Source: Rotaria socialis (taxonomy: Eukaryota). From it: a stretch of 64,000 nucleotides of DNA. How positions within the stretch are numbered: the stretch's first letter is position 1; every line of letters begins with the position of its first letter. The translations under genes and the position numbers were made by a program. Shown piece after piece: positions 13,658 through 63,163 of the stretch. The notes beneath the pieces are model-generated. The model made no database searches, was not told where the DNA came from, and saw nothing but the letters and a program-made list of their open reading frames with translations. The stretch is from the NCBI GenBank assembly GCA_905331295.1, contig CAJNYD010000390.1, positions 1 through 64,000 on the forward strand, written 5' to 3'.

Positions 13658-13775
13658 ATGTTGCGAATACCGGATCATTTTTTGTGGTAAACCGCGGTAT
13701 TTATCGGTTCTGCGGTAATGAGAGCCGGTAACCGGACCGGTAAAACCGCGGTTAACCGCCGATTTTCATGCGGTT
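13657..13775. repeat. GC-rich subterminal segment of another TE (ACCG/CGGT motifs), partial
   Basis: CATGTTGCGAATACCGG followed by clustered AACCGCGGT/ACCGG motifs; no partner end found. Confidence 0.35.
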
Positions 13776-14946: not shown

Positions 14947-16022
14947 ATGCCACAATTGGTTTCAAAAAATATGAGATACTCTGAATTAAATGAAAAGTCT
15001 ACCATCGGTCGTTCGTGGCGCTTTTACACTGTTGCACTTATTATTAGCGGGGTTTTGATTCTATTGGCACCCAAGCTTATATGGAAGAATCCTACTGTTC
15101 AACTTATTGCATGGAAAAATCGTCTCGTTGGTTACAGTGAACATAAAGCTGCATTCATTGATTCTTCTGGTTATTTGCGATCGATTTTATCGCCCAACCT
15201 TCGATGGTGTACTGCTAATCCATTTCTAAAACCCTATAATCAAAGTGTAGTACTTGCTTTAGAACTTAAATGGGTTGCATGGCAACGCAGTCAGCTACTC
15301 ACTACATACGAAATTTTGAAAAACTATGCACTTCAAATCGGAGATTGGGGTGGTGGCATAGTTCATCTTGCATATCCACCATCATTACCGTTGCCGTGTC
15401 CTTACAAAAACAATCTGACTCGTATCGGCGGTATTCATGATGGTAAAAAGATAATATGTGGAATTGAAATTTTCACCCCGCTTACTAAGTGTATCGTATA
15501 TAGTTTGGGTTCGTTTGGCAATTTTAATTTTGAATGGGACTTGCTAAAAAAACATCTTGTGAAGTTCACACATATGATTGTACGAGTCCACCACCAGGAG
15601 GAAAGACTGAACGAATGACTTATCATCAAATTTGTTTAGGTGATACGTCAAAGTTGCAAAAATTTATGTATCCTTACAATACTCAAAAAGAAAATATCAC
15701 ATTCAAAAATGAATCACTTTTTAAACGTTTTCACACAATATTGGCCGAAAATAAACACGACGAAGTTCATATTCTTAAGATGGATATCGAAGGAGGAGAA
15801 TATTCGATATTCTCTGACTTGCTCTGCCAAACGAACAAAACTAATCTACCATATCAAATATCTTTCGAGTCACATTGGTGGAATCGTGATATATACCATG
15901 CGATACTGCATCAGAAAATGTTTGCTCAATTCTGGACAGCTGGTTATAGAATTCTACAACATGAATACAATCCGGGTGACCATACCTGTGTAGAATGGAC
16001 ATTAATGAGAGTTTTCTGCTAA
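14947..16022 (+). pseudogene. Methyltransf_22/METTL24-like methyltransferase, split by a 1-nt frameshift in an A7 run
   Basis: N-terminal TM; RIGGIHDGKKIICG...CIVYSLGS..NFNFE in one frame, continued as KKTSCEVHTYDC...HILKMDIEGGEY in the -1 frame; the frames meet at A7 15546-15552. Intronless. Confidence 0.8.
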
Positions 16023-18599: not shown

Positions 18600-18673
18600 T
18601 AAGCAACACGTTTTATACGGCAAAGCGGAACAGCGGAAACTTTCTACAAAACGCGGAAGAGGTGGCAACCCTG
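18600..18673. mobile_element. Isolated hAT-like terminus (…GTGGCAACCCTG)
   Basis: Reverse complement CAGGGTTGCCAC, preceded by GCGGAA repeats; no matching left end seen. Confidence 0.35.
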
Positions 18674-19772
18674 GTACTCACACTCCTGAAAGAACAAATT
18701 CTTCTCAGAGCAAATATTTAGTTTTCCTGCTCAACTAGTACAGAAATGTTTATATGATCCGTTAGATGATAATCTCATATCTATCTCCTCCATCTTTGAT
18801 CATTTGGTTTTTGAATAAAACCAACGAGAAAAGAAAATATAATTTAACTTCTACTTTATACATTCCGGTCGAACGATTATCTGTTCTTTCGTTTTAATTA
18901 ATAAATGAATCAAAATTGAAAAATTGTTCAATATTTATTTTATTAATATTGAATACATATATATGAATTTAATTACATTTATAGATGAAATATTTAAATT
19001 GAGATGATTTTTACTGTCTTCAGAAAGAGACTCAAACGGAAATAGAATAATAATCTTTTCAATCAAATCTTATTCGATACAAAACAATGATGAGATTACA
19101 GTTGATTTATTGTTTGATGATCACCTTTTTTTTGCGTATGTCGGTGTTCGTTTAAAAGAATGCCGTAAAAGATAATCAAAAGAAAAAATTCAATAAATTA
19201 TCATTAACTTCCTTTTTTTTATTAAAAACTCAAAATAGATAAATAGAAAAACGAACAAGTTGACAAACATTACGATTGCCTTTAACGTTTATTTATTGAT
19301 ATAATTAATTAGATTTATCAATGGAATAAAAGCCGAAATTTCCACTAACAATTTCGATATTTCAACTGAATTGAACGATTAAATGATAAAATTCGATGTT
19401 TTCATAATGAAATTTGTAGTAAACGTTGAGAAAACATTGTTCAATTTTAATAACAAACAGTTGTTTATTTGTCTAAATAAAAAGAATTTCATTGAATTGT
19501 TTCATTTAAATAAATATACTAATATATTCAAATATTCATAAGGATTGTATTTATTATGTAAATCAAACTATATAAAAGGTATTCAGTTTGAAAGTCTAGT
19601 TGAGCTCAATAATATAAAATTTCATTAAAAATAAATTGCTAAATTTGACATTTTTCTCCTTTTCTCTTATCTTACAACAGATTTTTTTAGTTCTATTGTT
19701 GTGTTGCGATAAACGCGGCATCGTTGTCACTTTATATATTCAGATATACATTCAGTTGGGGATGCGTCACTC

Positions 19773-20196
19773 GGTGTTGGTGGAAAATGTCGAAATGCAA
19801 AATATCGAAGAGGAAAACGTCGAAACACAGAAATAAAAATATCCAATAGATTGTGAAAGAGAAAAATGTAGAATATATTGAAAGAGGTCAGTTGTAAAAT
19901 TGATTTTCTTTTCTTTTGATTGGTATCTCTTCGTCCGGCATATGGTATTTTACATTGAATAAAAAAAATTTTGTGGAAAGAAATATATTATTAATTGGAA
20001 AGAAAAAAAATAACGTTTTATTATATTTTCTATTCTCTCTCTTCTTTTTTATTATTATTAAAACAGTATTCATTATGGATCAAGGCTATGAATTCATCGT
20101 TCCGACATTTTTCTTTTCAAATTTTCATCTACATCTCTTTCTCATAAACTACTTACACTTTCGACATTTTCCTTTTCGACATTTTCCACCAAGATC
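19773..20196. mobile_element. MITE with 8-bp TSD (MULE- or hAT-like TSD length)
   Basis: TIR GGTGTTGGTGGAAAATGTCGAAA / TTTCGACATTTTCCACCAAGATC; TSD CGTCACTC at 19765-19772 and 20197-20204. Confidence 0.9.
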
Positions 20197-20763
20197 CGTC
20201 ACTCAAACCCTAAGCCGAATGTTCTGAATGAATCTGAACCTCAATATAAGTCGTTCGCTCTCGAAGGCGAAGTCAGATTTAAGTTTTCGTTGCATTCTTG
20301 CATTTACATAAAGAATATTTGATTACGGCTGACAAATGTCTTGCAGTAAATACCTATAAATATTTCATAGTTGACCTTTCTTTTTCCTCATTTTTTCAAT
20401 TTCTAGTAGATTCGACGATGTATCAGAGCACTTCCAATCGGAAGTTCGAAAGATACATACCCCATATTATACTACAAAAAGTTTATCATAATTGCTTTCT
20501 AATGAGCTGATGTCAAATATGAATCTATCAGTTTTATCTTGTAAGGAAATTAATGTGATGCGTACTCGCGTCACCCGCAACCACAGGGCTAGTCTCTCTT
20601 CTACTTTATTCTTCTTTACTTTTATCCAAAAACGAACTTGTATTAGGTGCAAAATTTTATTCTGCATCTCATGGCATAACCTTGAATCGGGGTCAGCGAG
20701 AAAAATGCCCACTTGACCCTAAATACCACATTTCAGACCCGATTTTCGCAGTATACCTTGCAA

Positions 20764-20970
20764 GAGGGAACCGGCAAACTTTTGGACTTGAAGTAAATTT
20801 GAGCTACTTCCAGTGGTGCACTGCAAAGTAGTTTTCAACTTCAAATTTACTTGAAGCCGCTTCAAAGTTGCAAGCTACTTGTTCTTATTTCGGACTACTT
20901 GATTGGCACTTTGAGCTGCTTGAAGCATGTACTTTGGCGTACTTTTCGACCTCAAGTCCGTGGTTTCCCC
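20764..20970. mobile_element. Possible degenerate MITE
   Basis: GGGAACC...GGACTTGAAGT versus ACCTCAAGTCCGTGGTTTCCCC; internal CTACTT/ACTTGA repeats. Confidence 0.4.
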
Positions 20971-23429
20971 CATATATTATTTGCTAATAATAGCTACAAT
21001 TATATTAATTATCTACTAATAGTATCAACAAGTAATTATAGAAGGATTAAGAGTGATTCATATAAAATATCTCATTTGATTATATATATGTAATAATATC
21101 GGCATTCGAAATTGTTGTAAAATATTTAAACTATGATTTGAATTAGTTTATGTCGAATAAATTCATAGAATTTGACAATTATTCAAATAAAATGAGAAAT
21201 GGTTTTACCAAATATCTTTTTGGTAGAATATCCAGTAAATAACTTGTTCATATCGATTGATAGAATATCTCAATCTAAAGTTTTTCTTTTCTAATGACTT
21301 TCTTTAATTTTTCTTATTTAAATAACATGCCTCCTGGTTCTTTTTAGATCTTTTTTAAATAAAACTTAAAATCAATAAGAATTACCTATGAGAATCATGA
21401 TTAAATAAGCATGAAAAAATATCTATGGAAAATTCGAAAGTAAAAATCTGATAAAATTTTACATGTAATAAATGATTATTGATTATGAAAAAGAAAATTT
21501 TACTAACGTGAGACCTCGATTATCTATGGTCAAACTAAATACAATTTAAATATTTTCTAAAACATACCCGTCCTGCAAAATTCGTTTCGAAATTTTGAAA
21601 ATCTGACTTCAGATTCGGATTCCCCGACCCCAAAAACCTATAGGAAAGTTTCATAAAAAAAACTTAGAAGCTTAGAAATAACGTCAATGATAGCCGATGT
21701 TTTTTTGACCTGCCACAAACATACAGACGCATTTTTTTTCATATGACCCTGTCTACAGTCGAGGGAATAATTTATGTATGATTTCTAACAAAGTATATTG
21801 TTCCATATCCATATGTAAAATCTATAAAAAAAATAAAAGACATTAGTAAAACCAAGTATTGAATGATGGAAAACAACAGATAACATTTGATTAATTATTT
21901 AAACTAGAAATAAAAATAAGATAGTTTCATTCTTCTTTTCTCTGGAATTGTTTTATCGTCTAGATTTAAGACCACGTTTATTGTTTAATAAGCAAAATTT
22001 ATTTTATTTTATATTAATGAATAAATAGGTTGTTAAAGAAAAATTTGTTAGTTCTTGTTTTGTTCAGACGATTGGTATATTAGACATGATTTAATTCTCT
22101 TCTTTTATTTTATTTTAATTTATTTAAAATTTAAATCAATTTAATTCGATTTCATCTCATAGTTTATCAATTTTAATTAAAAATTTGTAAATTGTGACGT
22201 TTTGTATCTCGATAAGCTACTTCCTCAGATATAAAAATTTAAGACAAATGGCATATGTACATATAAGCAAATTTTTCTTTTCTTTCAGTATTAGTCATAC
22301 TTTTGATAGCGATACAAAAAACAAGATGGTAATAGTAATAGCTAGCTAAGGATTCAATCCTTTTCCGTATCACTATAATAATGACAGAGACTATAGTTAC
22401 TAAGGTCTGTAATGGTAGCCGAAGGTTGTGGGTGTGGGTTTTCACGTATCATCTACCCACACCCTCAAAATTCTTGTGTAAACTCACGTCAACAAAAAAA
22501 AATATTAATTGAAGAGAACAAAAATAGAAATGCTCCTCACAGCTGCCTGCAAAATATTTCCTGTGTAAATAGTGATGACTTAAACTCTTTCTGTTCGCTG
22601 GCTGTTTCAGATAGAATTTTTATTCAACTTTCGTTCTTTTTCGTTCTTTGTTATTCTCTAAAGTGGAAAGAAAAATATGACTGTAATTATTGTTTTAATC
22701 AGAAGAAAATGTGAGAAATTTAAGAAAAATAGCATACAATATGATGTTTGGTTGAAATGAATGACTTGTTGTTTTGAAAGAATAGTAGCTGAGAAGAGGT
22801 GCATATAAATCTCGCCAAAATAGGCAGTTTCGATAGAAATAATGCATTGTCTTGAATAGGGGGTATAACGACTGTTAGATCAGATCAGAACTAAAACTGA
22901 ACTGTCGTGCCTCTACTGTTAGAGGAGTGATAGTAGCCCATTTCACAAAGTTAGACGAATTATCTGATTATTCGTATAATTTCTTTACATGAGAGGGATT
23001 GCCGTTTATTGTTGTTGGTGAAATGCAAGTGTTAATGCGATTAAACAGATGGTCCATATACAAATACACATTACAGTGATGAATATGGGAATGTATTAAG
23101 TATTTCTATAGAGATTATACTGAAAGATTTTTTCATGATGATCCTATATGGACACTCAAAAATCAATAAAGACAACACCGAAAACTTCATACAACGTGGA
23201 TATAATCATACTATTTTCTTCCTCCCTGTTTATGACTGTGATAAATATATTACATGAAAGTAAAAGGACACTTATATTGTTATCATGTCGAGTAGAATTA
23301 AATAATGACAAAATTTTCTTGCTTTTCTTTTTATACAAGGTTTTGATTCACCTTACGTCAGCGTTGTCGTTGAAAGCAATAGGTGATTTATAAGAAAGAG
23401 GTATAATGTCACTTTTAGACACTTATTGA

Positions 23430-27163: not shown

Positions 27164-27458
27164 TGTAACGATAAATGCGGAAAGCGTCTAAATTCCACGT
27201 GGGAGTGTAACGCTCCCGTTCGAGTGTGATCTGTGCATGGTATTTGGCCTTATGGTGCCATTTCTTCTCATCACATGTATTGTCTTTATCTTTCTGTCCT
27301 TGATATTTGTTTTTATCTCTCATTCTCGTTCGTTCTCTCAAATGGTTGAGTATTTAAGCGTGTGCTTTATATGTAATCGAGGCGATTTTATGATTTGAAG
27401 AGTGAAATAAAGCGTAATACCATCAGCACAGGTATCTTTTCTATCAGAAATCGTTACA
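27164..27458 (+). mobile_element. Solo LTR (295 bp)
   Basis: Termini TGTAACGAT...ATCGTTACA (perfect 9-bp IR); 5-bp TSD ATTAT at 27159-27163 and 27459-27463; internal TATTTAA and AATAAA in the expected order. Confidence 0.88.
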
Positions 27459-29031
27459 ATTATGAAATAGTTCTTGAAGGTATGAAATGTATCTTTAACA
27501 TACTTTCCCACGAACGGAAGTGTAGAATCATGTATATTCAATATAAGAAAATTAGAAGCGCGAAAAATATGCAAGTATATTTGAAAAATAATGAATCGTT
27601 TATCTGCAAGATAAATAATAAAAAAGACGTGTTAGTTAACTAGAACCAAGGGATCTCGAAAGAATTTTGATTCGTTATCGACGAAGTTCAAGCAAGATAT
27701 CGAAAAGAATTAGAATTGAGTAGTTCCGACTGGCTTATATTGGGCGTCTAGGAGGTTGGTTCGATTCAACAAAGAGGGTTTAACTTACATATATATTAAA
27801 GACGAAAATAAATCCTTTTGGTGAGAGAGGATATTTTCCAATGCCATTGATCATTTCTCTCGCCGATTGAGTATTATTTCACTCCTGCTGTATATATGTA
27901 ATAATTTTGTTTATAAGCTACGAAAGAGTTAAAAAGTAAATTCATGAAATTTATAAATGAAATCATAATTTATGATCTATTCGGTATCAACTTTCACGTG
28001 ACACCTGATAGGGTTTATTGTGATCTTGTCAATTACATTTTTCGTTACTGCAAACTCTCTTTCTTTTTTGCCCAATTTTTAGCTACCTATTCACATATAT
28101 CTTACAGAATTTAAAACATCGAAAAATACCAGTAAATCTAAGAAGGATTATACTGCATCAGCATTCAAATGTCGAATAATCTGTCACCAAAGATGTGGAT
28201 TGTTTCTAAAATATTTGCTGGTCGGAATGAAGCTTTTATAGTCTCATTTAATATTAACTCTCAAAATCAAACCCAAAAGTTTTCATTGAAAGACTATCAC
28301 CAGGTTTAAAGAGAATTGTGATAATTAGTTATAGTATTCAAGTGAAGCTAAAGAGCCAGTGAAATAGTATCAATTTAATCAGTTCAATAAATTCTGTTCA
28401 GCAACAATATGTTGTATCTCTTTTGATTCTTATTAGAGTAAAGTCATCTAGATAATGCAAATTCATATTCAAATATTTATTTGGTGTTACTGATTCATAA
28501 GCCTATAGAATAACGTGACAATACGTCAGTGTCATCAGTTGATGTGGATATTTCAGTATCATAGACGTGTGGTGCAGCGCAGAATTTTTTCTCGTTTTAA
28601 GCACATATAACGGTAAATAGTAGAAAAACTTTATTAGTGCATTATTAAATAAAGTGTGAAAGCAAGTCGTTTGCATAGTTTGTCATAGCTAGTGTTTCTA
28701 TTGGCATTTCTCGAGTTTCAGTTTTTATTTTCTGAAAAACGATTTTGGTGTACTTGATATTGTTATAATTTGAAGAGTATCTTTTGTTTCTTTTTTTAAA
28801 AAGGAGGAAAAGAAAGACAAACAATTGTATTATTTATATGCGTTATTGGATCAAGGTTACTCATAACCATAGGATTCAAGTTTTCCTCATATGTTACGTC
28901 TTTCAACGATCCAATAAGTTTGTTATTAGCGCGATTTTAATATACTGTATTTTGATTGGAAGTATCAATCAAGCTTAAAAACTACAGTTAACAAAAAGAA
29001 ACACGATTCAAAAACATCAATTAGACCATTG

Positions 29032-30456
29032 ATGATCGAAACTCCGAGTAACTCGCATTCTTGGTTTGAATGGATACAACTTATTGCCACTATTTGCGTT
29101 CCTGTAGCCATCGGTATTTTTACCATCATACAAAATCAGTCACAAAGTGAACAGCAACGAAATAATTTGAAAATAGCTGCGGAAAATCGTTTGAAAGATA
29201 TAGAAATCGCAGATTATAATCGGGGAAAAGATCGATGGCTTGCTGATGATCAACAGAAGGAAAATATTCTTGTTGATTATCAAAATTTTCTTGCTAATCT
29301 ACTCGAAAAGCATGGCATGACATTGAATGGAACGTCGACAGCGCGGTTCGTAGCTCGCTTCAGAACATTGATAGCACTTAATCAGTTGAATTCGGCACGG
29401 CGTTCTTTTCTTATTCGTTCATTGTATGAGGCACAGCTGATTTCATTTCGAACTATTCAAACAAATAATACCATGACGGAATTTGAATCCGTTGACACTC
29501 CACGAAGTATTGTTGACTTGTCTTCAGCAAACTTATCCGGTTTGTCTCTAGGTATCAATGAAGATGATAACGATGAGTGTCCTCGTGAATGTATTCCTGG
29601 TGTGAGGATCGACGCGCTTGTACTGTCACAGACTCAATTAAAAAATGCATTCTTTCGAAAACTTTATTTTCAAGGGGCTTTATTCGTGAAATCTATTATG
29701 GATAGTGTTGATTTCAGATGTGCATATCTCAATGGAACTAATGATTATCTTACATTTGCAAATTCATTATTAATTCATGCAAAATTTCATAAAGCATGTG
29801 CGCAAGACGTTTCTTTTCAGTCGGTTAATTTGTACAAAGCTCAGATGCATGGTATGGTATGCAGACATTGTATATTTCGATGTGCCCAAATAAATCATGC
29901 AGATTTACACGATGTTTTCTTCTACCGAGAAGATGTGAACAAAGATAAATTGCATGACGAATATGAAAATATTAATTTTACAGAAACGTCCCTTATCGGT
30001 GCAACATTCGATCATCTTTCTTTACGTGGCACACTTTTCATCGGAACGAATTTGTCTCGCATACGTATTATAAATTGTGTGTTTTCTCGAGATTCTGTTC
30101 AATATGCAGCAGCAACTTTCGAAAAATCTACTCTGATCAATGCCACTATTGAAAATTCATCATTTGATTATGTTCATTTTATTGATAGTAACTTAAGTGG
30201 AGCAAAGATTTTCATGTCGAATTTTACCCATGCATCTATGAAAAATATTGATTTGACAGGTGCAACATTGGAGATGTGTAATTTTAGTAGTACCAATCTT
30301 GCTGGTTGCATCATGACTAATGCGAACATTCATTTGTCTTACTTTGTTGACAGTGATCTGACTGGATGTCAAGGAATAACGGATGTACAACTGGCGCAAG
30401 CTAAAAGTATTGCTGGTGCAATTTTACCGAATGGAAGCAAGATCTCATCAATATAA
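29032..30456 (+). CDS. Pentapeptide-repeat protein with N-terminal TM and coiled coil
   Basis: Intronless ORF; TM WIQLIATICVPVAIGIFTII; many A(N/D)L-type pentapeptides (LSSANLSGL, INHADL, SNLSGA, IDLTGATL, TNLAGC); C-terminal GAILPNGS. Confidence 0.88.
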   Translation: MIETPSNSHSWFEWIQLIATICVPVAIGIFTIIQNQSQSEQQRNNLKIAAENRLKDIEIADYNRGKDRWLADDQQKENILVDYQNFLANLLEKHGMTLNGTSTARFVARFRTLIALNQLNSARRSFLIRSLYEAQLISFRTIQTNNTMTEFESVDTPRSIVDLSSANLSGLSLGINEDDNDECPRECIPGVRIDALVLSQTQLKNAFFRKLYFQGALFVKSIMDSVDFRCAYLNGTNDYLTFANSLLIHAKFHKACAQDVSFQSVNLYKAQMHGMVCRHCIFRCAQINHADLHDVFFYREDVNKDKLHDEYENINFTETSLIGATFDHLSLRGTLFIGTNLSRIRIINCVFSRDSVQYAAATFEKSTLINATIENSSFDYVHFIDSNLSGAKIFMSNFTHASMKNIDLTGATLEMCNFSSTNLAGCIMTNANIHLSYFVDSDLTGCQGITDVQLAQAKSIAGAILPNGSKISSI

Positions 30457-32179
30457 ATTCATGCTATCAATGACAGGCCATTTTACTATTATGGTTTTTT
30501 GCAAAGAAAACTATTGGAATTAGAAATTTCTTGACGGTGTCCACCTGAGACTTCTTTGTCAAACTCATGTTCTCAAATATAGTCTCAACTCCTACCAAGC
30601 AGAAAATACGTGTGTGCATCATTTAAAATAGCTGTAAAAATATTCATTGTATTGAGATCCTGTACTTTTCGAATGAACCAGTAAAACTATGTATAAAATC
30701 TTTCAAAATTCCATAGTTCAACATTTTTTAAACACAGGTTTAGATGCCAATAAATAAAGATGATTTGTACATAGTACTCGTGGCTACGCAGAGCCACGAA
30801 TAATGAATCCAAAATATGTTGAAGAGAAAATGACGAATTTCTTGTTGCCTACCCGATCATTGACTTCTTGACGAACTGTTAGTGTTGGAACTTCGAAGTT
30901 CGAACAATGCATGTGGAAAACTTGAGGGACTTCATAGTTTCATCTTGCATCATCTTTCGACTGTTTTCAGGCAGAGACTTACATTTAAATCATGAATTTT
31001 TATTTATTAAACTATTACCCCTTTAATATTTTGAAAAAATAATTTTTTCTAAATGTTAACTTTCCACAAAAAACTAGGTCTTTAGTATGAATTTTGATCG
31101 AGATCTCAAAGAAACACGTAGGGAAACATTTATTCAGACATCCCCGTTCATGCTAATAAGTAGCGACATCTAAAAGATATTTATCCATTCCATGTATTGG
31201 AGGTGCTCAAAGTATTTCAATGGTTTTCTCGTATATGTAGCTGAAAAGTCTATGTAGATTGCGTGAGAACTGATTTCAACGGTCTTGTGACTGTAAAAAA
31301 AAACTTTTGGTATAAGAAATGCTGTCTCATATGGCAGATTACGTCATGAAACTCTTCTTTCTTTTCGAAGTGCCATTTAATTAGTTATTATAAAATTTGA
31401 TGGAAAACATGTATTAAGAGTAGGACTTAGGTCAACATGACATTAGAACTACAATTTGCTGAAAATGATTGCTACTGCCTAAAATGTTGTACTGTTAGAA
31501 TCATGTTCATAATGTAGAATTGTATCATAAATATGTATGATGAATGATTGAAGATATGATTTCTTTGCACAACTTGAGCATTTCTCATAGAGTTCTTTTC
31601 TTTTTTTTCTATTCTTTCTTGATAAAACTGGATGAAATCATGCGTTCACTATGATATCATATGAACAAATTATAACGTATATATAATTGTTTCTGAAAAC
31701 ATTGTAATATAGGTTTCAATAGACAATTTTTTATAGATAATTCTGTCTTTAAAATTTGAAATAAATGCGAGTCCCTGATCGCTGGACTTGTACTATCTTT
31801 CAATAGAAAAAAAAACTAAACTGGTGTTCAACGTCAAAACTCGTTTTAAAGAGGAACAGGAGCTGACAAACAATAATGATTATTTGGCAAATAGAACAGG
31901 TACTCTACAGAATTGCTATCTTATCATATATGTAGTTAGTGTATAGCGTACTTACATAAAGAACTATTCTTTGAACTGAATCTTTATTAAAAGTAATATT
32001 GTGAGCTATCATATATCTATTCATCGCGAGTAATAACAACAACAAGAATGTGCAGCAGAACTTCAAAGATTCATCATAATCATACTATTGAAATTTTAGT
32101 TTCTTTGAAGCAATTTTCAATTGAATGCAAGCTTATCTTTTAGTTCACTCCGGTATAGTTGAGAACATTCTCCTTTGAA

Positions 32180-33820
32180 ATGCAAATGGTGATAGCACTA
32201 GTACTTATCGGTATTTCCATGTTCAATCTTACAGTGACCAGTTTACAAGCTGATGATTTTTACGTCCATGGCTTGCCTCTTTTACCTACAAAGGCTTCTT
32301 CAATCCGTATGCATGCCGGACAAATACCTATTAGTCCGAAATATGACGCAGCCCTATTTTTCTGGCACTTTGCAAGCAAAAACCTTGCTGACAGATCGAA
32401 AACAGTAATTTGGCTCAATGGAGGTCCTGGTTGTAGTAGTCTGATTGGCGCTTGGTTAGGAATTGGTCCATTTCGCTTTCAGGGCAAAGATACAATAATT
32501 GAAAATGATGGATCTTGGCATATGTCTGCCAATCTTTTGTTTGTTGACCAACCTGTTGGCACTGGCTTTTCTTATACCGTTAATAACTCATTTATTAGTG
32601 ATCTCGATGAAATGGCAAATCAGTTTCTCAGTTTTCTCGATCGATACGTTGACGTTTTCCCAGAATTACTTGACGATGATATTTATTTAGCTGGTGAATC
32701 TTTTGCTGGCCAATATATTCCTTATATTGCAAAAGACATTCTAATAAAGCGATCTATGTTGAAATTACGTGGTCTTTTGATTGGTAATGGTTGGATAGAT
32801 CCTGTGACTCATTATGAATCTTATTTACCTTTTGCAGTCGCAAAAAATTTAGTGAAAGTTAATTCTACTTTCTACAATAATATTGCTAACGATAGCGAAA
32901 AATGTCAGCAGGCGTTATCGAATAAAGTTCTTGTTTTAGAAGAAACATGTTCTTCAATCCTGTATGGAATAGTAGAATGCAGTATGCTTACTCAAAGTGC
33001 AATGAACAAAAAATACAGATGTGTCAATGTCTATGACGTGCGATTATATGATACATGGCCTGCTTGTGGTAGGAATTGGCCACCGGAAATGGAATATATC
33101 ACGCTTTATTTACATCGAAAAGATGTTAGGTCACGTATACATGTTGATCGTAATACATCAGAATGGGAAATGTGTGTGGATTCTGTTACGAGAACACTTG
33201 CTAAAACTGAGTCTGAACCATCCATTAAATTTTTACCTGATTTACTTCAGCAAGTTCCACTCCTACTTTATAGTAGTGAATATGACTTGATTTGCAATCA
33301 CTGGGGAATGGAGAAAATGATGGATAATATTACTTGGAACAATAGAACTGGATTTGACCTTGGAAATGGTACTTTAGCTCCATTAGATCCCTGGTTTGCA
33401 GATGATGATGAACCTGTCGGTCTTATTCGAACGGCGCGTAATTTAAGTTATATTTTATTTTATAAAGCCGGCCATGTGGTCGCATATGATTATCCACGTC
33501 GATCGCTTGCTATGCTAAATCAATTCATGCAACTAAAGTTATATTCTAATGCCTATCAAGCAAGAAAACGAAACACATTCAGAAAGATGATTACGAGCAT
33601 ACGCGGTGCGTACAAGAGCATTTATTTCATCGCATTTGTTTCATTTTTGATCATTATTACTCTTACTGGAATGGCTTGTTTTGTTATACGAAAACAAAGA
33701 CATATTAGAATGCGCGTAGCGTTTATTAAGCCTCGTGTGTTGGAGTCACAAAATCTTGATGTCAGCCTACAGCAAATGGTAGTATATTCTCCCGTCGGGG
33801 AGGCGCAAGAAAATATGTGA
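32180..33820 (+). CDS. KEX1: Serine carboxypeptidase S10, fungal KEX1-like, type I membrane
   Basis: Signal peptide; MHAG, LFFWHF, TVIWLNGGPGCSS, FVDQPVGTGFSY, GESFAG (Ser), YDLICN (Asp), AGHVVAYD (His); C-terminal TM. Intronless. Confidence 0.88.
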   Translation: MQMVIALVLIGISMFNLTVTSLQADDFYVHGLPLLPTKASSIRMHAGQIPISPKYDAALFFWHFASKNLADRSKTVIWLNGGPGCSSLIGAWLGIGPFRFQGKDTIIENDGSWHMSANLLFVDQPVGTGFSYTVNNSFISDLDEMANQFLSFLDRYVDVFPELLDDDIYLAGESFAGQYIPYIAKDILIKRSMLKLRGLLIGNGWIDPVTHYESYLPFAVAKNLVKVNSTFYNNIANDSEKCQQALSNKVLVLEETCSSILYGIVECSMLTQSAMNKKYRCVNVYDVRLYDTWPACGRNWPPEMEYITLYLHRKDVRSRIHVDRNTSEWEMCVDSVTRTLAKTESEPSIKFLPDLLQQVPLLLYSSEYDLICNHWGMEKMMDNITWNNRTGFDLGNGTLAPLDPWFADDDEPVGLIRTARNLSYILFYKAGHVVAYDYPRRSLAMLNQFMQLKLYSNAYQARKRNTFRKMITSIRGAYKSIYFIAFVSFLIIITLTGMACFVIRKQRHIRMRVAFIKPRVLESQNLDVSLQQMVVYSPVGEAQENM

Positions 33821-33973: not shown

Positions 33974-34436
33974 CTAGTTCGAATTCGAATATAAATGAAC
34001 ACCCAAGTGCATGATATCAATTCGAAAATAAGTGATAGAAATAGATTTAGTTTTAATTTTATATTTAGTTTAAGATGGAGTGGGTGTGGGTTGAGGGGGA
34101 CTAATGGATAACTGTGGGTGACGGTGCAAGTGAGGGGTGGGTAGGGGGTGTACCCGGAAAGGGTGCGGGTACCTGATGTACTTCAAACGCGGTTGTGGAT
34201 GAAGGATACCCAGAATGGGTGCAGAGGTATCCAGTATACTTCAAATGTGAGTGTGGGTGATGGATACCATGGAGGAGTACTCAAATGTGGGTGTGGGTGC
34301 GGGTGAAGGGTATATGTGTATTCATATGTCGCATATATCGGAAAGCTAAACTAAAACTAAATCTATCTTAGATTTAGTTTTAGTTTAACTTTTTCTTTTC
34401 TTCATTTATATTCGAACTTGAATTAGACAGCTACTC
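33974..34436. mobile_element. Dispersed repeat, copy 2: TGTGGG-rich body, hairpin and subterminal inverted repeats
   Basis: Homologous to 6025-6342; CTAGTTCGAATTCGAATATAAATGAA (33974-33999) is inverted to 34401-34426. Confidence 0.8.
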
Positions 34437-35284: not shown

Positions 35285-37723
35285 TTACACACCCACACCC
35301 TTACTACTGATTATAATTAAAACAAGTTTGTTGTTGATTGTATAATATGTTCGGCATGATTGACAAAGTTGATGGGTCTTGTCAATTTTACTACTACATT
35401 CCCAACAAAGAATTCTATGACATTGGTTGCAGTTACTAGTGATTTCTAATGGTTTTATGAAATGAAAATATAGCTGATATTGTGTAGGAGACATTGTCGA
35501 TAAATTATGTAAAGGAGTATATAATCCAAAATTTGATAAATACATTGAGATCATTTGAGAAGTATTAGATGGTAACATATAAGTAATCGGTGGTAATGAA
35601 CCATTATGAATACCAGCAGGTGTCACATTTGTTGCGTTTGTTGAATCTTCTATATTTGTTTCAATAGCATTATAAATATCTGTAGTTGGCCTTACATTTT
35701 GTTTCTGTGTAACGTTCGTTTTGTTCGAATTATTTTTATGTATTGGTAAGTTTAGCTTCAATAGTTTTTTTCTCTTTAATTGTTGTCAATGCAAATTTGT
35801 CAAAGTCTGTTACAATTCTTCCTTTTGCTCCTGAAACCACACGCTTCTTTCCTTTTGTACATATTGTTGACTATTGAGAAAAATATTTCTTTACCATTGC
35901 TTCAATAGCGTCTAATGAACGATTTTTTTCTAAATATAATTGAAATATTTTATACTGGCATTGTTTTCTATTAGGAACATTAGGCTACCTGTTGATTGTG
36001 ACGGAATCAATAAATTGTCATTTGTATTCGATATTGACAAATCAGAATCATTTGAAGAGGTTGAATTAATAATGAGTATCGATTGAATAGGAGTAGTTAT
36101 TATTGATGTTACTATTGAGTCTGTAGCTCTAAGAGCATGATCAAGAGAACTATAGCATCTTGATACTCAATTACTGATTCTCATTGTTGTTTTGTTTTAT
36201 TTGATTCATCATAATCTACAAAATTAGCATTAAAAAGATTTTTTAAATTTTATCTGGGCTTACCGGAAAAAAGAGCTGGATCAGGTGGATATTTTACCAA
36301 TTGATGGTTTCGATTTGAATCCAATCGTGATGGTGATGGTGATGTTGTTGTTATCACTTCATTGTCAAGGTAATTGAATTCGACAGACTTTGAACGAGGT
36401 AAGACGTTTGATGTTGTTGAACGTGAAGATGCTTTAATAAGTTTATCACGTTTAATTGCGCGAGGATCATATGGAAAAATACCTGCTTTTCCTAAAGCAG
36501 ATGAACAATGGGCTCGTATAAGTGCATATTGATATAGTTGAGCATGCAGTCGGATAAAGTTAGGTTTAACTAACTTTTTTGTAGCATCTTTTTGCTATAA
36601 TCCTAAAATAGACTACGTCTTTGTGCCTTCACATACATCAGTATGTAAACACCCAATTACGGTTGGAGGAGATGTGTGACATGAGCAGGAAGACACAATA
36701 GATGCATATCATTGTCTATTGCTAATCGTGCAGTTTTTAATGATAAATGTGACGTATGCCCGTCAAATATCAATAAAAGTGGCCTTGGAATATGTTTCGT
36801 TTGTGGTATACCGTAGTATTTCTTTACTGCTACCAGTATGAATTCTAAATATCAAACGACAAGCTGAGTAATGAAAACAATAATAAAAAGAATGATTATT
36901 AACTCACTTATTTGCATATTTAGTATCTCGACTAACGACGACCTTTTTTCCTGGATCATCTCGAAAACCATTCTCATCACAGTTGAACAATTGTTGAGGC
37001 TTATTAAATAAATCGAGTTTCAATAAAACTGAATGGAGCTTGGCAAACCAACCATCAACGGTACTCAATGTAACATTGGCTCTAACTTTTTCTAATTTCG
37101 TGCTGTTCATTATTTTTAATTTGTCTTTCCACCGCCGTAGAAAACTGTAATACCAATCACGCGTTGGTGCATCATTTTTCAATCGAGACTTTAAATTCAT
37201 TATGTCAACAAATTCAGTTGCATTTTTCAATATATCATCACACGTTGATATTTCACCATAATCTTGTAAAGTAATAATCAAATCAACTAAATTTTTCTCT
37301 TCTGTTTTAGTCAAAGCTGTAGGACGACCAACTTGATGATTTGAATTTCGAGATATTCGAGATACAAACGTGCTTTATCAAAGCGGAACTAATTTAATTT
37401 CAATTATCTAAATGAGAAAAGTTAATTATAATAATGTTGTGTGAAATACATGGATTTATCCAAATTCCCCGTCTTCCTAGTATATCTATCCAGTTAACCC
37501 TGATGGGGTAATGGAAAAACATCAGTTGAGCCAATTGCAAAAACAGATAGGAAATAGACCCTTTTAACTCCAACTAAAAATGTTTTTTTTCACAGGTCGA
37601 TAGAGAATCAGTCACTCTATCTGCATGCTGAATCATGTGAAAAAATATTCAAATAGAAAAAATGATACCAAAAATTAAAAAAAGAATTGAAAACATATAT
37701 CCAATTGCCCCACACTGTTCTAC
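35285..37723 (-). mobile_element. Degenerate pogo/Fot1-like (CENP-B HTH + DDE_1) transposon
   Basis: GRPTALTKTEEKNLV...WYYSFLRRW...LFNCDENGF (36904-37330); RPLLLIFDGHTSHLS...LLCLPAHVTHLSQP (~36660-36790); GKAGIFPYDP (~36460-36495); Cys-rich zinc-finger-like tail (35285-35430); TATCCA(A)TT(G)CCCC motifs at 37457-37710. Confidence 0.85.
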
Positions 37724-44916: not shown

Positions 44917-47585
44917 ATGGAAATTTTACGTGCTGAAACCAATGAATTTCCACATTTAAAAGTATGTATTCGTTTAAGAAGTTTTTGTTTATTAATTAAT
45001 TAAACATTTGAATAGGCTACTGATGGTGGTACAACAAATAATAATAATAATAATAATAATAATTCATCAACATCATCATCAACTATAGATGAAGATGATG
45101 ATGATCGATTTTCGAATGTTAGTACACAAGATGAGAAACGTACAACAAAATCTCCTGTCAATACTGAAGATAAATCAAAAATCAATGATGAAAATTCAAT
45201 AAATGATTCACTAGTTCAACCACCGATTGTTCAATCAGTTGTTAGTCGAGCAACGTCAACTATTGATTATACACGTCATCGTGAACGTCTTGCGAAAGAA
45301 CTTAAAGATTATGAAGATCGTTGGTTAGCACATAGAAATTTCCTTCTCTACACACAAGCATTTAGTATGAAACCCGAAGATCGTGAACGTTTATTTTCAC
45401 AAATAAATTTAACGAATAATGATGAAGCATTTTCACGTTTATCAAAAGAAGAACGAGATCGATTTTTCGCAGCTGCATTATATAATCAACAACAGCAACA
45501 GCAACAACAAAGTCCCTATAATTTTCATCAATATCCATGGGCAACAGCGCCCCCACCGCCGCCGCCACCTCCACCACCACCAACATCATCATTACTTATT
45601 CCACCGATACCATCAACTACAACAGATCAACAGCAGCAGCAGCAGCAACAACAAAACCAACAACCAAAATCACCTAGTTCAGATGATAGTGGCAATCAAT
45701 CAAATTCTGGAAGTACAACTGAATGGTAAAATTGATGATATTCTCTTTTGTTTGCATTCAATATATATTTTTTTCTTTCTCTCTTTCTCTCTCTTATAGG
45801 ACTTTCGAAGAACAATTTCGTCAGGTAAATAAATCTTACTTGACGAGAAATCAATTAAGTTTAGTCTAACCATTTCTATCTGTATTAAGATCTATCATTT
45901 ATTTGTTTCTGTTTGCACATCATTTGCATAGCTAGTAGATGTGTCTCGCTCACTCTTTGTAGATAGACTGAGTATTGATAGCTTTGAGGCAATAATTAAT
46001 TGGATTGTTTGGTATATTCTATATGGATGGGGAGTGCCATAAGAGATGTAACAAAGACTCGTTCATCTATTTTCTCTTTCATAGAAACACTTATCTATTA
46101 TTGAAGACACGCGGGTTAAACGAGAAATCAAAACCACATCGATCTTCTTTTTATTTTATTTTACACAATAGTTTCTCATAGACAAGGTAGATCAAGGCGA
46201 ACATTCACAGAAAATTAATCGAAAAAGAAAAGACGGGAACGTTGACCATCTGTATGAATACACGCATACATACATACGCACACACATTGCTTATTACTTA
46301 TTGACAAGGTAATTAGAGGCAGAAAGAAAAAGATTGATTATTTAAAATTCTTTGTCTGAACAGAAAAAGAAATAAGTTTATGTATATAAATGTATATATT
46401 GCTTAGATAGTCTGGCATATCAACATACACACATTATTTCAGTTGATTAGATCGGAAAATAATTATCGGGCTGAAGGTTACAAAAAAAAGAAGACGCTTG
46501 GGCAGGCGTCTGTTTTTATTCTTTCTTGCTATTTCTGCGTAGATATATGTATAAGGGTTTGTGTGTCGTAGAGAAGTATATTACAATCAGATATTGTGAT
46601 CGATGTTGCTCGACTGACATTTCTGTTCGTATCTTTCTCATCAGGTTTATATAACAATAAGAAGTTTCTATCCATCAAAAAACGTTTATGATCTTGCAGC
46701 TGTTGTTTAGCTTGTAACTATCCCTTTAGACTAATTTTCTTCCGATTAAGGCCGGTCAGTTTTTGTCTGATGATCAATTTATCGTTTACATTAAAGACAG
46801 AATATATCCATGTCAGTCATATATACATATCAACTAATTGCTTTCGTAGGAAAAATGAAGAAGAAGAAGACGAAGAAGAAAAGAACGACACATTAGTTTT
46901 TTGCTCATTTATAAATATGTGCATCTTTAGATTATTGATGAGCTTCTGCGTTTGGATCAACAATTAGTCTCATAGGGACTTGTATATATATATATATAAC
47001 TGATTCTTTTTCTAAAGAAAATGTCTGATCATCAAATAGAATGTCGCACGGCCGTACGCTTCTCTACATAGGAACGAGAGCAGCACAGCTCGCGGCTATA
47101 TCGATTATTTGCTACTAATTGCATTGTTTCGAGGCAGATGGTTGACGAGCAAAAAAATGAGCATCTTAAAGAAAAAGATTTCTTTTTATGGACTATTCGA
47201 TTACAATTAAATCACAAAGAATATCCAGCTGCTGTCAAACTAAAAATCAGCTTAAAGATTATTGCTTATCCTATATGTAAGACACGTTTAACGAAAGAGA
47301 ATATTAAACGATGAAGTTCGTTTCTATCGTTGTGTCTTATCAATAAAGGAGGTCAAATCGAGCAGAAAAGACGGTCGAGCACTTGTCTGTATATAAAAAG
47401 AAAAAAGCTTCATCGATCACAATTACAAGTTAGGGAAGAGAAGAAAAGATAGAGTCTTTCGTTTTATCTGCAGAGAGAGAGAGAGAGGGGGGGGGGCGAA
47501 TAAATAAACAAATCATCATTGAATATACGCTCGATTAGAGGCATTTCGGATGAGAGCGAAAGGAAAAAAAATTATTAATGAATTN

Positions 47586-47676
<91 letters not shown>

Positions 47677-50130
47677 AAATAAACAAATCATCATTGCATA
47701 TACGCTCGATTAGAGTCATTTCGGATGAGAGCGAAAGGAAAAAAAATTATTAATGAATTTCCTGTCTTGTCCGCAGTGAATGAATTAGTTTAATGAAACA
47801 AGTTTTATATTTTTTTTAGCTTTATGAATTATCCGACGAACCTAAACGCAAAGAATTTCTCGATGATTTATTTGCATTCATGCAAAAACGTGGTAAGCAT
47901 TTAATTACGCGAACAGTTGATTTTATAATTTTTTCATTGGAAGAAATTTTTTATCCAATAATAAATAATCATCATCATCATGAGATAGAGAAATGATTTC
48001 AGGAGGAATGTTGTTTGAGTGGAAAATTATTATCAATATATCATAATGAAACAAAACATTTGACTGTTAACGGAAGTATCGGTTTGAAGTTCAAAGGAGA
48101 TTGAAATCAAATATGAATATATCTTTCTTGTTCTTGACAGGTGATTGAATGAAAGTATTTGTTTGTTCGATTTGATGAATTATATACTTGAGAATAAGAT
48201 GATAAAGAAGAAAAGATGAAATCATTATTTTTCTTCTTCTTCTTCTTCTTCAAGGTACTCCTGTTAATCGAATTCCTATCATGGCAAAACATGTTCTTGA
48301 TTTATGTAAGTGAATATTTAATTCTCTATTGATGAGAAAGATAAATAAGAGATTTATTTTGCTTTCTGTAGATGAATTATTTCGTTTGGTTGTGGGAAAA
48401 GGCGGTCTCGTCGAAGTAATTAACAAGAAATTGTGGCGTGAAGTGACGAAAGGTCTCAATTTACCAAGCTCGATTACTAGTGCTGCCTTTACTCTACGTA
48501 CACAGTATGTTTATATCTTTACATTGACATTCTTATTTAGGGAAATAAATTTCTATCGAAAATAATTATTCTATTTGTTTAATTGGAGGAAATAAAACAA
48601 ACAACTTTCGAATCTGTTCTTTTCAATCAAATATAGTTTATTTATCTAAGTACTCATTGAGAAGAATCGATCTACGCATGTCCATTCGAGAAATCTATAG
48701 TTTAATATATTCTCTCGAGACTTGTTCTATTCAATTTTTTCGTTCGGGTTTTTTGTTTTTAACAATTAGATAAAGTGTTGATATGTATCGTAGATTTAAC
48801 TAATAAGTTCTATTAGATCAATACAGAGGTCAAGATTTGTCTCATAAAGAGATTTGTATTTTTTATTCGAGTAAATATTCTTGGCATTTGTTGTCTATCA
48901 TATGTCAATGTCTCGAACATAAATGATAAGAGATCAATTTGTTCTGGCATATTTCTACGGAGGCGAAAAAAGAAAGAAACTTGCACCATCATTAATTCTC
49001 AACTTAGCGTGTCAATGCCGTTTGTTTGCTATTATTATAAGGAAAACGACTAATGACAATGGAGAGAAGTATTATAATATTGTTATTTTTTTTGTCTTTT
49101 TTTTCTATTAAGATATATGAAGTATTTATATCCATATGAATGCGAAAAATTACAATTAAGTTCGCCGGGTGAATTGCAAGCAGCAATTGGTAAGATTAAA
49201 TCAAATACAGTTATCGCTATATTTCCTGTATCTTTCTCTCTTTGCGTTTTTAAGAAGGCAATCGACGTGAAGGACGTAGACCATCATATGCATTTGAATA
49301 TTCTTCACCACCACAAATAATGGCACCACCACCACCCCCAACATCATCAGCAGCAAGTGCCTTTCTTGCTAGTCCATTAGCACATCGACCAAGTAATAAA
49401 ATTTCTCTATAAAATGAATAGGAAAACGATTCAATTTGTTTTATTATTATTATCATTATTATAGTGGACCCTAATCATGGCCATGAAGCAATGCAACATG
49501 CAGCTATGGCTGCTGCTCTATCTCATCCATTTTTTCTTGCAGCTGCAGCAGCTTCATCACGCGATGGTAATCATTCATCAATTGAACCATCGTCAATACC
49601 AAGAATTCCTTCATTTGATGATCATCATCATCTTCATCATCATCATCATTTACAATCATCATCACCAACATCAATTATTCCAACAAATAAACTATTCGAG
49701 CGATCATCAACAATAACCAAACGAAGCCTCTCACCATCATTATCTAAACAGCAAAATGATGATAATAATTCATATTCAAAAAAACCCATAACAGCAATAA
49801 ATAATATTCGTTCAACATGTTTTGCACCAGTGACAAATAATAATAATAATAATAATAATAACAATAATAATAGTTCATCATCATCATCATCAACATCATC
49901 ATCATCATCATCATCATCATCATTATTATCGCCAGCTAGCAAATTAAAAATTATTGCGAAAGGTAAAGAAAAGCTGACTTGGAGAAAAAAGAATTTTTAT
50001 CTAAAAATTTTTTTTTTAAGAAAACAATCCTGACCAAGAAAAATCAATTACAATATCAATTGAATTAAATGGTATTGTATATCAGGGAACATTGTATCCA
50101 ACAAATTTATTGACTGGTAGCAAAGAGTGA
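44917..50130 (+). CDS. ARID3: ARID3/dead ringer (retained/Bright) transcription factor
   Basis: Spliced eARID motifs WTFEEQFRQ|LYELSDEPKRKEFLDDLFAFMQKRG|TPVNRIPIMAKHVLDLY|ELFRLVVGKGGLVEVINKKLWREVTKGLNLPSSITSAAFTLRTQ|YMKYLYPYECEK...ELQAAIEGNRREGRR; REKLES-like last exon SIELNGIVYQGTL (50021-50130). The first exon is less certain. Confidence 0.95.
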
Positions 50131-57593: not shown

Positions 57594-59019
57594 TTTTTGC
57601 ATTATAAAAGAGTAATTTCTTTTTAATTACAATGAAATAAAAATAGAAAGATATAACTATACGATATCAATCAGCCATGATAAATTACTAATAGTAATTT
57701 ACTATCATAGCTATTTAAAAAAAAGAATTTTTTGAAATCAGATTCCACACCCATGCCTTTGAATAGACGGAAAATAAATTATATTGTTTTTTAATAAAAA
57801 TTATACTTAAAACAATATTTGTATTTATTTTAAATATAAATTGTGATAAAGCAATATTCATATTTATTCAAAGTATAAATTACCGACAATTTATATTTCT
57901 TTAAAATAAATAGGAAAATCATGCCCCTAGCTCCTATTTTCATAGTCTGTTTTTTTTGCATGACAGTTACACATATTTCTCTGATATTTATAGATCCCAT
58001 TTTATGTTTTTCAGTTAGTTTACTATTTATGCTTCATTTTTTAAAGCAGTAGACGCTTGTTTTCATACATTATCTCTTTGTTGCCTTTTCATTGTATTCA
58101 TTCATAGTTAAATATAAGTATATGTTAGCTGACGAAGAATATTTGGTATTGAGTATAGTACTTGTTAGTGCTGTCCGTTATTGCGAATAATAGGACATAC
58201 AAATATTTCAATATGATTTTGATATTCTGAGTTTCCACATATCCTTCGGTGAAGTATTGCATTTTTTTATACATACAGATAACAATTGACGTAGTGATTT
58301 ATTCCAGTAAAGTAGATACAGATATCTACTGAGTAATCACTTCTTAATTCAATGTCAATCGATCGTCTTTTTATTTATTGCTTAGAGTAGAATAGAACTA
58401 TCATAGCTCACTTTATCTGATTATCTGAGTAGATATGAAGACAAATGTCATAAGTCATACTTAGGTTTTATCAATTAGTTTTTATATATTCGATATATCA
58501 GAATTTTGAGATTCACTTTGTATTTTTCCGTATATTCAAAACTTACGTGGTATGAAGAATCTGTATTCGCTTCAATTTAGCGTTATTCCAGTCATGAAAT
58601 AAAATAATAAAACTCATGTTTTTCTCTGGGAGATAAAGATACTTCTCATTCGCTATACGATAGGAGTTGGCAATAAATGTACAAAATCCTTTTTAATATT
58701 TTCTCTCGTTGTCTATGTTCTTATAATCGTCTTCTCGATTGAGTATAGGAAACTTTTCACGACAAGCTATATATGGCATGTCTAGTGATGCATCTATTAA
58801 AAAAAACTCGAAAGCAATGGATATGGCTCAAAATGAACACGTTTTACTTGAGTACACCGTTTACCAGTTAGGCGAATTTTGTTAAGTCAGAAATATTTTT
58901 ACATGCTGTTCACCGTTTGACTTTCAGCCAAGTGAATTTTGGGTAAAACGAAAACATATTTTATAGATCGAACTTATCTAAAGTTTTGCTTTAGATAAAT
59001 GATTACTGAACTTGAATTC

Positions 59020-59244
59020 TGTTATGTCTTCTTCTCGCTCACATTATTATACTCAATTATCAGCGAGACAGCAACGTGATGGTATGACAACAGAACGGAA
59101 CAAAAGGATAATCCCCCTTCGCATGGAATCGAACCATGCACCTCCTGCTTTCCGGGCAGACGTATTAACCACTGTACTAGAAAGGAGTGTGCATTATTCG
59201 TTTGTTCCGTCTTACGATCGAAGGGGAACACTTCGGTCGTAACA
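59020..59244 (-). mobile_element. Solo-LTR-like element (TGTTA...TAACA, 5-bp TSD) containing a tRNA-like gene
   Basis: AATTC at 59015-59019 and 59245-59249 flanks TGTTATG...CGTAACA. Confidence 0.8.
59113..59186 (-). tRNA. tRNA-like cloverleaf, anticodon GGA (nominal Ser), Asp-like body, non-canonical
   Basis: TCCTTTC TA GTACAGTGGTTAATAC G TCTGC CCGGAAA GCAGG AGGT GCATGG TTCGATT CCATGC GAAGGGG G; A and B boxes present; C33 instead of U33; short variable loop; TTTT 8 nt downstream. Confidence 0.8.
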
Positions 59245-59566
59245 AATTCGTTGAGTATCTTGTACCAAAACTGCGTGCTAGTTCTGATTCGTAAGGGTCT
59301 ATTTCAATCAATTAATACAAAAAAATTAATTGATTCATTTGAATTGCACACCAAACCGAGCAGAAAATGTGGAATATAGTTGTACTTTTTTTTAGGGAGA
59401 CAGCCTATTCTAGTATTGAACGAGTTAAAAATCCTTTTAAAACTTTGATCGAAAATAAACTCGCTTTTGACGGTACATATGTTTGGTTTTTATAGTGCTT
59501 AATCTCATTATAGATTGATATAGTTTTCATTGTTCCAAGAAGTTACACAAACCAGGAGTTACGAGA

Positions 59567-60100
59567 ATGCAAGTCGTATTTGCACTTTTATTTATCTTAG
59601 GTAACTCAGATTTAAATGTATGAAAAGTAATCTATGATTTAATTGAATTTCACGCATGAATAGGATGTATTTCTGTTGCGAATGGATTAAGATGTTATGC
59701 TTGCGAATCTGCCTCCACACCCAATTGTGGCGACCCGTTTAGTAGTTCGTCATTAATACCTACGAATGAAACGGCTGGTGCCGGTCAGCACAAAGTATGC
59801 ATGGTATGTTTTTCTTTCGCTTGCATGTCTTGTTCATGGCACTAACACGATCAAACTATCTTTTTATTTCTTCAGAAGGTAAAAAGTGAAATCAAAGGCG
59901 CTATCCTTGTTGTGCGCAGTGGTATACCTATTACCGAAAGATGTATCGGGGGCGGGAACGGGTGCAAATCTGTCAACAGTATTACGACATGCTGCTGTAC
60001 TTCGGACTTATGTAATAGTGCACTTTCCATTCAAAAGCAATCAGTTCGTTTCATGATCATGATAGTATCAACAGTCGTCGTCGTCTATCAGTGGATGTAA
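59567..60100 (+). CDS. Ly6/uPAR three-finger (Quiver/sleepless-like) GPI-type protein, paralogue 1
   Basis: Exons 59567-59600, 59664-59803, 59876-60100; signal peptide, LRCYACES...CGDPF...C...CCCTSDLCN, hydrophobic C-terminus. Confidence 0.9.
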
Positions 60101-62630: not shown

Positions 62631-63163
62631 ATGCAGTCTATAGTACTTCTTCTATCTATCCTAGGTAATTAAGTTTTAAATCAATCGATCAATATCATTT
62701 TATTGAGTTTGATGTATAAATAGGATGTATCTACATCGTTCATGGATTAGAATGTTATTATTGTGAAAGCGACGTAAACTCGGGTTGTGGTGATCCGTTC
62801 AATGCAAGTGCCATGAATGACGACAACACGGATGACGATACTACCTTTATAGCGTGTGTGGTATGTTCTTTTGATTTTCTTCTCTACTTCATGGCGCTAA
62901 AACTCATAAATCGTTTTCTTTTTTTCCAGAAAGTAAAGAGTGAAAGCAATGGCATTTTCAGCATATCACGTCGTGGTGTAAATACAACTGGCGACTGCTC
63001 TGGAGATGTGAATGGCTGTAAGTCACAAAATATAAATGGTGTAACTAGTTCTACATGCTGTTGCACTACGAAGTTATGTAACAGTGCATCTTCGCTTCAA
63101 AGCCTATCGGTTATTTCTATGGCCATAATTCTACCAATTGCTCTTGTCTATCAGTTGATTTAA
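62631..63163 (+). CDS. Ly6/uPAR three-finger GPI-type protein, paralogue 2
   Basis: Exons 62631-62664, 62724-62860, 62930-63163 with the same intron positions as paralogue 1; IRCYYCES...CGDPF...CCCTTKLCN plus hydrophobic tail. Confidence 0.9.

Follow-up and report, generated by a model that had tools for sequence, protein, structure and literature searches.

We suggest that the 225-bp unit at 59020-59244 of the window (the whole 64-kb stretch of DNA analysed here) derives, as a solo LTR, from a miniature non-autonomous LTR retrotransposon of the Helenus type (TRIMp3), with a tRNA look-alike as its predicted internal Pol III promoter. We give this reading a probability of about 0.7. The dispersion of the unit, its TG/CA ends, the site-specific 5-bp duplications, the intact A and B boxes, the T4 run and the non-canonical anticodon loop are seen directly. 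The concept of a TRIM with a tRNA promoter is already published (Kojima 2024, PMC10886601). New here are the host phylum, Rotifera, and a duplication length that is unusual for animal Helenus.

The features of the unit are listed below. The minus strand given for it is the sense of the tRNA-like part, which is taken as the sense of the element by assumption.

59020..59244, minus strand: solo LTR-like unit, 225 bp, TGTTA...TAACA, with TGTNR at both ends
59015..59019, plus strand: left copy of the target-site duplication, AATTC, 5 bp
59245..59249, plus strand: right copy of the target-site duplication, AATTC, 5 bp
59212..59242, no strand assigned: terminal hairpin, 12 bp with a 7-nt loop, predicted U3 end
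59193..59210, minus strand: leader arm of the 18-bp inverted repeat enclosing the tRNA-like part
59113..59186, minus strand: tRNA-like cloverleaf, predicted R region (ARAGORN, Rfam, comparison of three copies)
59169..59179, minus strand: Pol III A box, read from the sequence, invariant in all three copies
59125..59135, minus strand: Pol III B box, read from the sequence, invariant in all three copies
59095..59112, minus strand: trailer arm of the 18-bp inverted repeat
59102..59105, minus strand: T4 run in the trailer arm, candidate Pol III terminator, kept in all three copies
59020..59094, minus strand: distal segment, predicted U5, its outer part variable in length among copies

Ends, copies and dispersion of the unit

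The preliminary description had placed here a 225-bp unit with TGTTA...TAACA ends and an exact 5-bp AATTC on both sides, and all of this is found at these positions. The perfect terminal inverted repeat is 5 bp long. Taken alone the end signature is weak: in the window, 35 TG..CA spans combine a 5-bp direct repeat with terminal inverted repeats at least 4 bp long, and eight of these have at least 5 bp. Boundaries of independent origin are therefore needed, and homology fixes them by a step in depth, by loose contig ends and by two copies outside the window. At fixed ends a 5-bp match between the flanks has p=0.0022, and such a match in two of three copies has p ~1.5e-5.

Most of 58650-59600 is contained in 8 of 24 sequencing runs, which come from organism A (2 studies); the window itself may derive from one of these eight. 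Four of the eight were mapped, with 165 contigs placed for X1, 109 for X2, 149 for X6 and 142 for X8. The summed contig depth is 7679-23103 inside the unit vs 29-76 outside in X1, 800-2271 vs 6-13 in X2, 4419-13174 vs 19-41 in X6 and 6045-15087 vs 0-62 in X8, and the step is confined to bins 59012-59266 in every mapped run. These depths are sums raised by overlapping contigs and are not copy numbers. Since even the minimum per-position depth inside the unit (472, 3847, 2697 and 1773 in X2, X1, X8 and X6, respectively) is tens-fold above that of the flanks, we infer a copy number between tens and a few hundred. Loose ends are found at 59019/59020 (4-14 contigs per run) and at 59244/59245 (12-14 per run), and their consensus agreement of 0.45-0.58 at both termini implies many unrelated flanks. 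Additional loose ends within the tRNA body suggest that there are subfamilies, with this body as their main point of difference. Neither a joint skipping the whole unit, as in an empty-site allele, nor an excision footprint is seen in the four runs; X8 is without cover at 58910-59011, which proves nothing on the empty site. The other 16 runs (organisms B-G, one more, and six metatranscriptomes) hold 0.05-0.16 of the words, and the six RNA runs 0.05-0.07 of the words from 58650-59600, values that are uninformative on range and expression.

A gapped pattern scan of metagenome contigs yielded five loci, two of which are true copies. The copy at L005:250-490 (241 bp, 89% identity) has terminal inverted repeats of 7 bp and is flanked by a duplication of its own, GGAGG. 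The copy at L002:626-822 is shorter (197 bp, also 89% identity); its terminal inverted repeats measure 8 bp, and it lacks a duplication. TGTTA stands at both ends of all three copies. The remaining loci, L001, L003 and L004, were rejected, as they are one identical GC-rich stretch in which only the pattern matched. The tail after the T4 run measures 82, 100 and 57 nt in the three copies.

The L005 copy interrupts a decayed reading frame beside an HTH_animal-like frame (L005:178-1179, minus strand). HTH_animal clusters, with Rotifera as their commonest phylum, match this neighbouring frame, which lies on the same strand; the recognition value is below threshold, so that the match is a lead only. 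We take the frame to be a Penelope-like element, probably its end. Open frames on opposite strands flank the copy in L002, as might result if two copies had recombined or if the assembly were chimeric. Pfam gave no match in three flank peptides of L002 and L005. A repeat rich in AACCGCGGTT-type palindromes, MITE- or Helitron-like and unclassified, is common to 13653-13788 of the window and L002:146-328. Because this second repeat is shared, the host of L002 is probably related to that of the window.

Within the 64-kb window no second copy of the unit was found by blastn or nhmmer. Pattern searches of genome contigs gave no copy (0 matches, plus one chance 20-nt match in a bacterial gene). In viral contigs three patterns of the unit gave 0 matches, and a 17-nt pattern gave 43 loci with no alignment >22 nt. 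The unit belongs, as a single member, to a dispersed repeat family. The earlier proposal of a multi-copy element whose homology ends at TG/CA, with differing 5-bp duplications (AATTC, GGAGG), is borne out, and none of the three outcomes named beforehand as contrary to it (a single copy, homology running past TG/CA, a SINE inside an ordinary LTR) was found. Paired LTRs with PBS and PPT, which had also been looked for, are another matter: the three copies examined are without an LTR partner, and without a PBS-like or PPT-like flank in either orientation.

The tRNA-like part and its helix

ARAGORN reports one tRNA gene in the window, a tRNA-Ser(GGA) at 59187-59113 on the minus strand, and calls the same gene in two of the three copies. 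The Rfam family RF00005 matches 59186-59114 with 38.9 bits (gathering score 29), which is the sole such match in the window; the corresponding part of L002 scores 51.8 bits. Together with the reading of the sequence, these calls confirm the minus-strand cloverleaf with A and B boxes and T4 proposed at the outset. The designation of this cloverleaf as the element's own tRNA gene holds as far as the boxes and the maintained pairing of the T arm go, but it is overstated, as the anticodon loop is non-canonical. GGA lies at the anticodon position 59153-59151, C replaces U at position 33 and the variable loop is short; in L005 one base of the anticodon loop is lost, leaving 6 nt. Judged from its sequence, the tRNA-like part is unlikely to decode, because it combines C33, a Ser anticodon and a short variable loop, and because of the 6-nt loop in L005.

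On the tRNA strand the three copies share one layout: a leader of 58-59 nt, the cloverleaf, T4 ~8 nt later and a tail of 57-100 nt. The tRNA-like part thus sits at a fixed offset in all three, and no A-rich tail is present. Variable columns of the alignment are unevenly spread. They amount to 11/59 in the leader, 1/19 in the acceptor 5' strand plus A box, 14/33 in the D-anticodon-variable region, 0/10 in the B box, 5/12 in the tRNA 3' end and 4/57 in the trailer. From copy to copy the sequence of the T stem varies, with its pairing kept (6/6, 6/6 and 5/6). The pattern of invariant boxes and a variable anticodon region is consistent with the role of Pol III promoter that had been proposed for this part. 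A low-depth contig form in X1, X2, X6 and X8 skips 59119-59192 (74 nt, most of the tRNA part); either the stretch between the helix arms was looped out and deleted, or the tRNA body is very diverged in this form.

The cloverleaf is enclosed by the inverted repeat 59095-59112/59193-59210 (18 nt, 89%), and beyond its leader arm lies a terminal hairpin with arms at 59212-59223/59231-59242 (12 nt, 92%), both as first described. None of the three copies differs in the outer 7 bp of the enclosing helix, which is uninformative on pairing either way. The terminal hairpin is kept in all of them, with one paired change, and its single mismatch is a G-U pair solely on the strand opposite the tRNA, again in 3/3 copies and at two distinct positions. 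The TCTCGCT/AGCGAGA stem noted near the other end is present in the window (59033-59039/59062-59068) but is not a family feature: it is broken in L005, and its left arm is missing from L002. The folding z of the window copy is -3.77 for the plus strand vs -2.39 for the minus strand; this better folding of the strand opposite the tRNA is not clear in L005 or L002. RNAalifold finds two-sided changes at 2 of 55 pairs, and three related sequences are insufficient to prove structural selection.

Likeness to Helenus and alternative readings

Helenus elements (TRIMp3) are TRIMs with a tRNA-like part in the LTR, described from fungi, six animal phyla and Selaginella (Kojima 2024, PMC10886601). They are non-coding, about 0.3-1.3 kb in full length, and make duplications of 4-6 bp; solo LTRs are their usual remnant, and some families are known solely as such. 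Their LTRs span 104-323 bp in the portion of Table S1 used here (PMC10886601). The rotifer unit resembles them in many respects. It is a TG..CA unit with an internal tRNA-like part whose A and B boxes are conserved in 3/3 copies, its isotype and anticodon disagree, and the contrast between a variable anticodon region and conserved boxes is the pattern that Kojima reports (PMC10886601). Like Helenus, it forms a dispersed multi-copy family with ends at TG/CA (4/4 runs and the outside copies) and with many solo LTRs with duplications, which are 5 bp in two of three copies and missing from L002. Its length of 197-241 bp fits the LTR ranges of Helenus and of bdelloids, which supports the reading as a solo LTR. 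By eye, among the LTRs viewed, a T run follows the cloverleaf in many fungal and oyster ones (PMC10886601), and oyster Helenus-2_CGi and -2C_CGi apparently have a leader-trailer stem around the tRNA part likewise. The likeness is one of features, the named families being compared by description and not by sequence.

Two differences are seen. For all animal Helenus families in the available part of Table S1 the duplication is 4 bp or n.d., and the unit, with 5 bp, is for this reason not filed under a described animal lineage; fungal and Selaginella Helenus have 5 bp there, as the rotifer unit does (PMC10886601). In addition, the tRNA part lies closer to the predicted 5' end (58 nt before it, 66-110 after) than in most LTRs of that selection. 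We consider the unit a likely member of Helenus on these sequence features, perhaps of an origin independent from the known ones; Kojima expects independent origins for Helenus (PMC10886601). The earlier view of the unit as a tRNA analogue of Cassandra is right in its tRNA-like LTR, dispersion and duplication, but the class is not novel, being Helenus/TRIMp3 (PMC10886601). Cassandra and Ajax are TRIMs with 5S-derived promoters (PMC10886601). They share with the unit a Pol III promoter derived from a small RNA and placed in the LTR, and Ajax, in the passages used, is animal and makes 5-bp duplications; here, however, the promoter is of the tRNA type with A and B boxes, and Rfam finds no 5S. Rotifera are absent from Table 1 and, by term search, from the supplement of Kojima 2024 (PMC10886601). 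No rotifer report of such elements was found in the literature searched, a scope outside which Repbase and subscription journals lie.

We propose the following course of events, modelled on Helenus and Cassandra.

Step 1: The full element would carry an LTR of this kind on each side of a short spacer with PBS and PPT. Transcription by Pol III would begin in the 5' LTR, immediately before the tRNA-like part. The first T4 would be read through part of the time, and transcription would stop at the T4 of the 3' LTR. With this start and stop, the tRNA-like part would be the R repeat. More speculatively, the leader-trailer helix would be complete in the transcript's 3' LTR alone, since U3 is copied into RNA there, and may bias termination toward the second T4.

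Step 2: An autonomous LTR retrotransposon would provide Gag, reverse transcriptase and integrase in trans, and a host tRNA would act as primer. Integration would yield the 5-bp duplication. An integrase making 5-bp duplications has acted in this genome, as the ordinary solo LTR at 27164-27458 has one (ATTAT). This LTR is 295 bp long, with a 9-bp terminal inverted repeat and TATTTAA and AATAAA motifs, and gave 0 matches in viral contigs; its end matches 7 of the 9 first bases of the unit's tRNA-strand start, which is too little to name a helper. A decayed B-box-like motif at 27700-27880 was considered as a relative of the unit and rejected, the likeness by eye not being significant (4/500 other tiles scored higher, 8/500 shuffles equalled it, and nhmmer reported nothing).

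Step 3: Recombination between the two LTRs would leave the single one at 59020-59244.

Against the Helenus-type solo LTR stand the three copies examined, all single and lacking PBS and PPT, the copy in L002 without duplication, and the 4-bp duplications of every animal Helenus family with a value given. Against the tRNA-sense orientation stands the opposite strand, which folds better in the window copy and alone has the hairpin G-U pair. The better folding bears on an alternative that we regard as unlikely, namely that the unit was left as a solo LTR by an autonomous or long non-autonomous element (Ty3/gypsy-type Juno, Vesta, TelKA, Mag) whose LTR had captured a tRNA-like sequence, perhaps in antisense to a Pol II transcript. 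The logic of ends and duplication would be identical, the plus strand folds better, and "not a few" Repbase LTRs hold tRNA-like parts, only some of them being TRIMs (Kojima, PMC10886601). In the part of Rodriguez et al. 2017 (PMC5408684) drawn on here, the bdelloid LTRs of these families are TG..CA, 159-551 bp long and left mostly as solo LTRs. They are thus similar to the unit and candidates for its helper, but no coding region is linked to it; the word "tRNA" is absent from the main text of that paper, as far as it was available, and from that of a second bdelloid transposon paper. What is conserved in the unit, however, is the A box, the B box and T4, and neither of its strands has AATAAA, unlike the LTR at 27164-27458. 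Its apparent abundance also exceeds the 1-2 full copies plus ~10x fragments per family given for Adineta vaga in the same part of PMC5408684.

A single-unit, MITE-like DNA element with the tRNA as cargo or promoter, cut and pasted by an integrase (Ginger-like or from a retrotransposon) specific for TGTTA ends, is somewhat less plausible. All three sequenced copies are single units. Such solos are nevertheless expected of the preferred LTR reading, because LTRs are several-fold more numerous than internal parts in most Helenus families of the material consulted (PMC10886601). The following comparison draws on part of Bao et al. 2010 (PMC2836005). TGTNR termini are shared with Ginger1 and Ginger2/Tdd but occur in Gypsy LTRs too and are hence non-diagnostic, and TDD-4/5 of Ginger2 make 5-bp duplications, whereas metazoan Ginger duplications are 4 bp. 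The Ginger-like element raised in the preliminary description fits poorly, as the perfect terminal inverted repeats of our copies are 5, 7 and 8 bp, vs 40-270 bp in Ginger1 and 50-180 bp in Ginger2, and the transposase is missing here. The lack of any excision footprint or empty allele in the four runs speaks in the same direction.

We assign a similarly small chance to a family without a two-LTR form, whose single unit of 200-240 bp would be copied and inserted unchanged by a retrotransposon integrase. The tRNA-like fold of this unit would be kept by paired changes and sealed in an 18-bp helix that buries the Pol III terminator. If true, such a mobile unit would stand between SINE, TRIM and MITE and would have spread widely in a transposon-poor rotifer genome.

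It is highly improbable that the unit carries a working tRNA gene, is an ordinary LTR with an inserted tRNA SINE, or supplies its own primer: the cloverleaf is above the Rfam threshold, its T stem is maintained and all four runs have the form skipping 59119-59192, but C33, the Ser anticodon with a short variable loop and the base lost in L005 oppose a working tRNA, the constant offset, the flanking repeat that is inverted and not direct, the fixed TG..CA ends and the missing A-rich tail distinguish the unit from SINE2, and no Helenus PBS was found to be complementary to its own tRNA-like part (Kojima, PMC10886601).

Host, surroundings and meaning

A protein of the window has 30 Atlas matches in one set, with top scores of 0.94-0.96 and Rotifera as the commonest phylum. 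From the F-box-like and pentapeptide genes we presume that the host is likely to belong to Bdelloidea. Several other features of the window were observed. An AT-rich repeat occurs at 6038-6342 and 34077-34436 in two copies that are 81-88% identical, with a 24-bp internal hairpin. Just right of the unit, a diverged 120-bp direct repeat (59585-59707 and 62649-62767) is 71% identical. An 88-nt C run between 89-bp direct repeats at 47499-47762 may be an assembly artefact. Broken frames at 36250-37374 on the minus strand have no Pfam match; to our eye they resemble a remnant of a pogo/Tigger-type transposase. Long uninterrupted frames lie at 28930-30456, 32159-33820 and 14905-16022. The first of them is a pentapeptide-repeat protein by Pfam, and we take the second to be a likely serine carboxypeptidase and the third a likely methyltransferase. 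We regard these long frames as candidates for the foreign genes typical of bdelloids.

Last, we consider what the unit would mean. Copies of this kind inflate tRNA gene counts, as ARAGORN calls tRNA-Ser(GGA) in two of the three. The conserved helix over T4 bears on how Pol III passes the first LTR terminator and stops at the second, a matter that concerns all TRIMp3. If the host is a bdelloid, as is likely, an abundant non-coding family would stand against the low copy numbers per family in the part of the bdelloid report used here (PMC5408684), and may sit within the unclassified repeats of these animals. If the unit is a member of Helenus, it extends TRIMs with tRNA promoters to Rotifera. 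Its 5-bp duplication would then break the 4-bp pattern of animal families in Kojima 2024 (PMC10886601), which would point to a different helper or to an independent origin.
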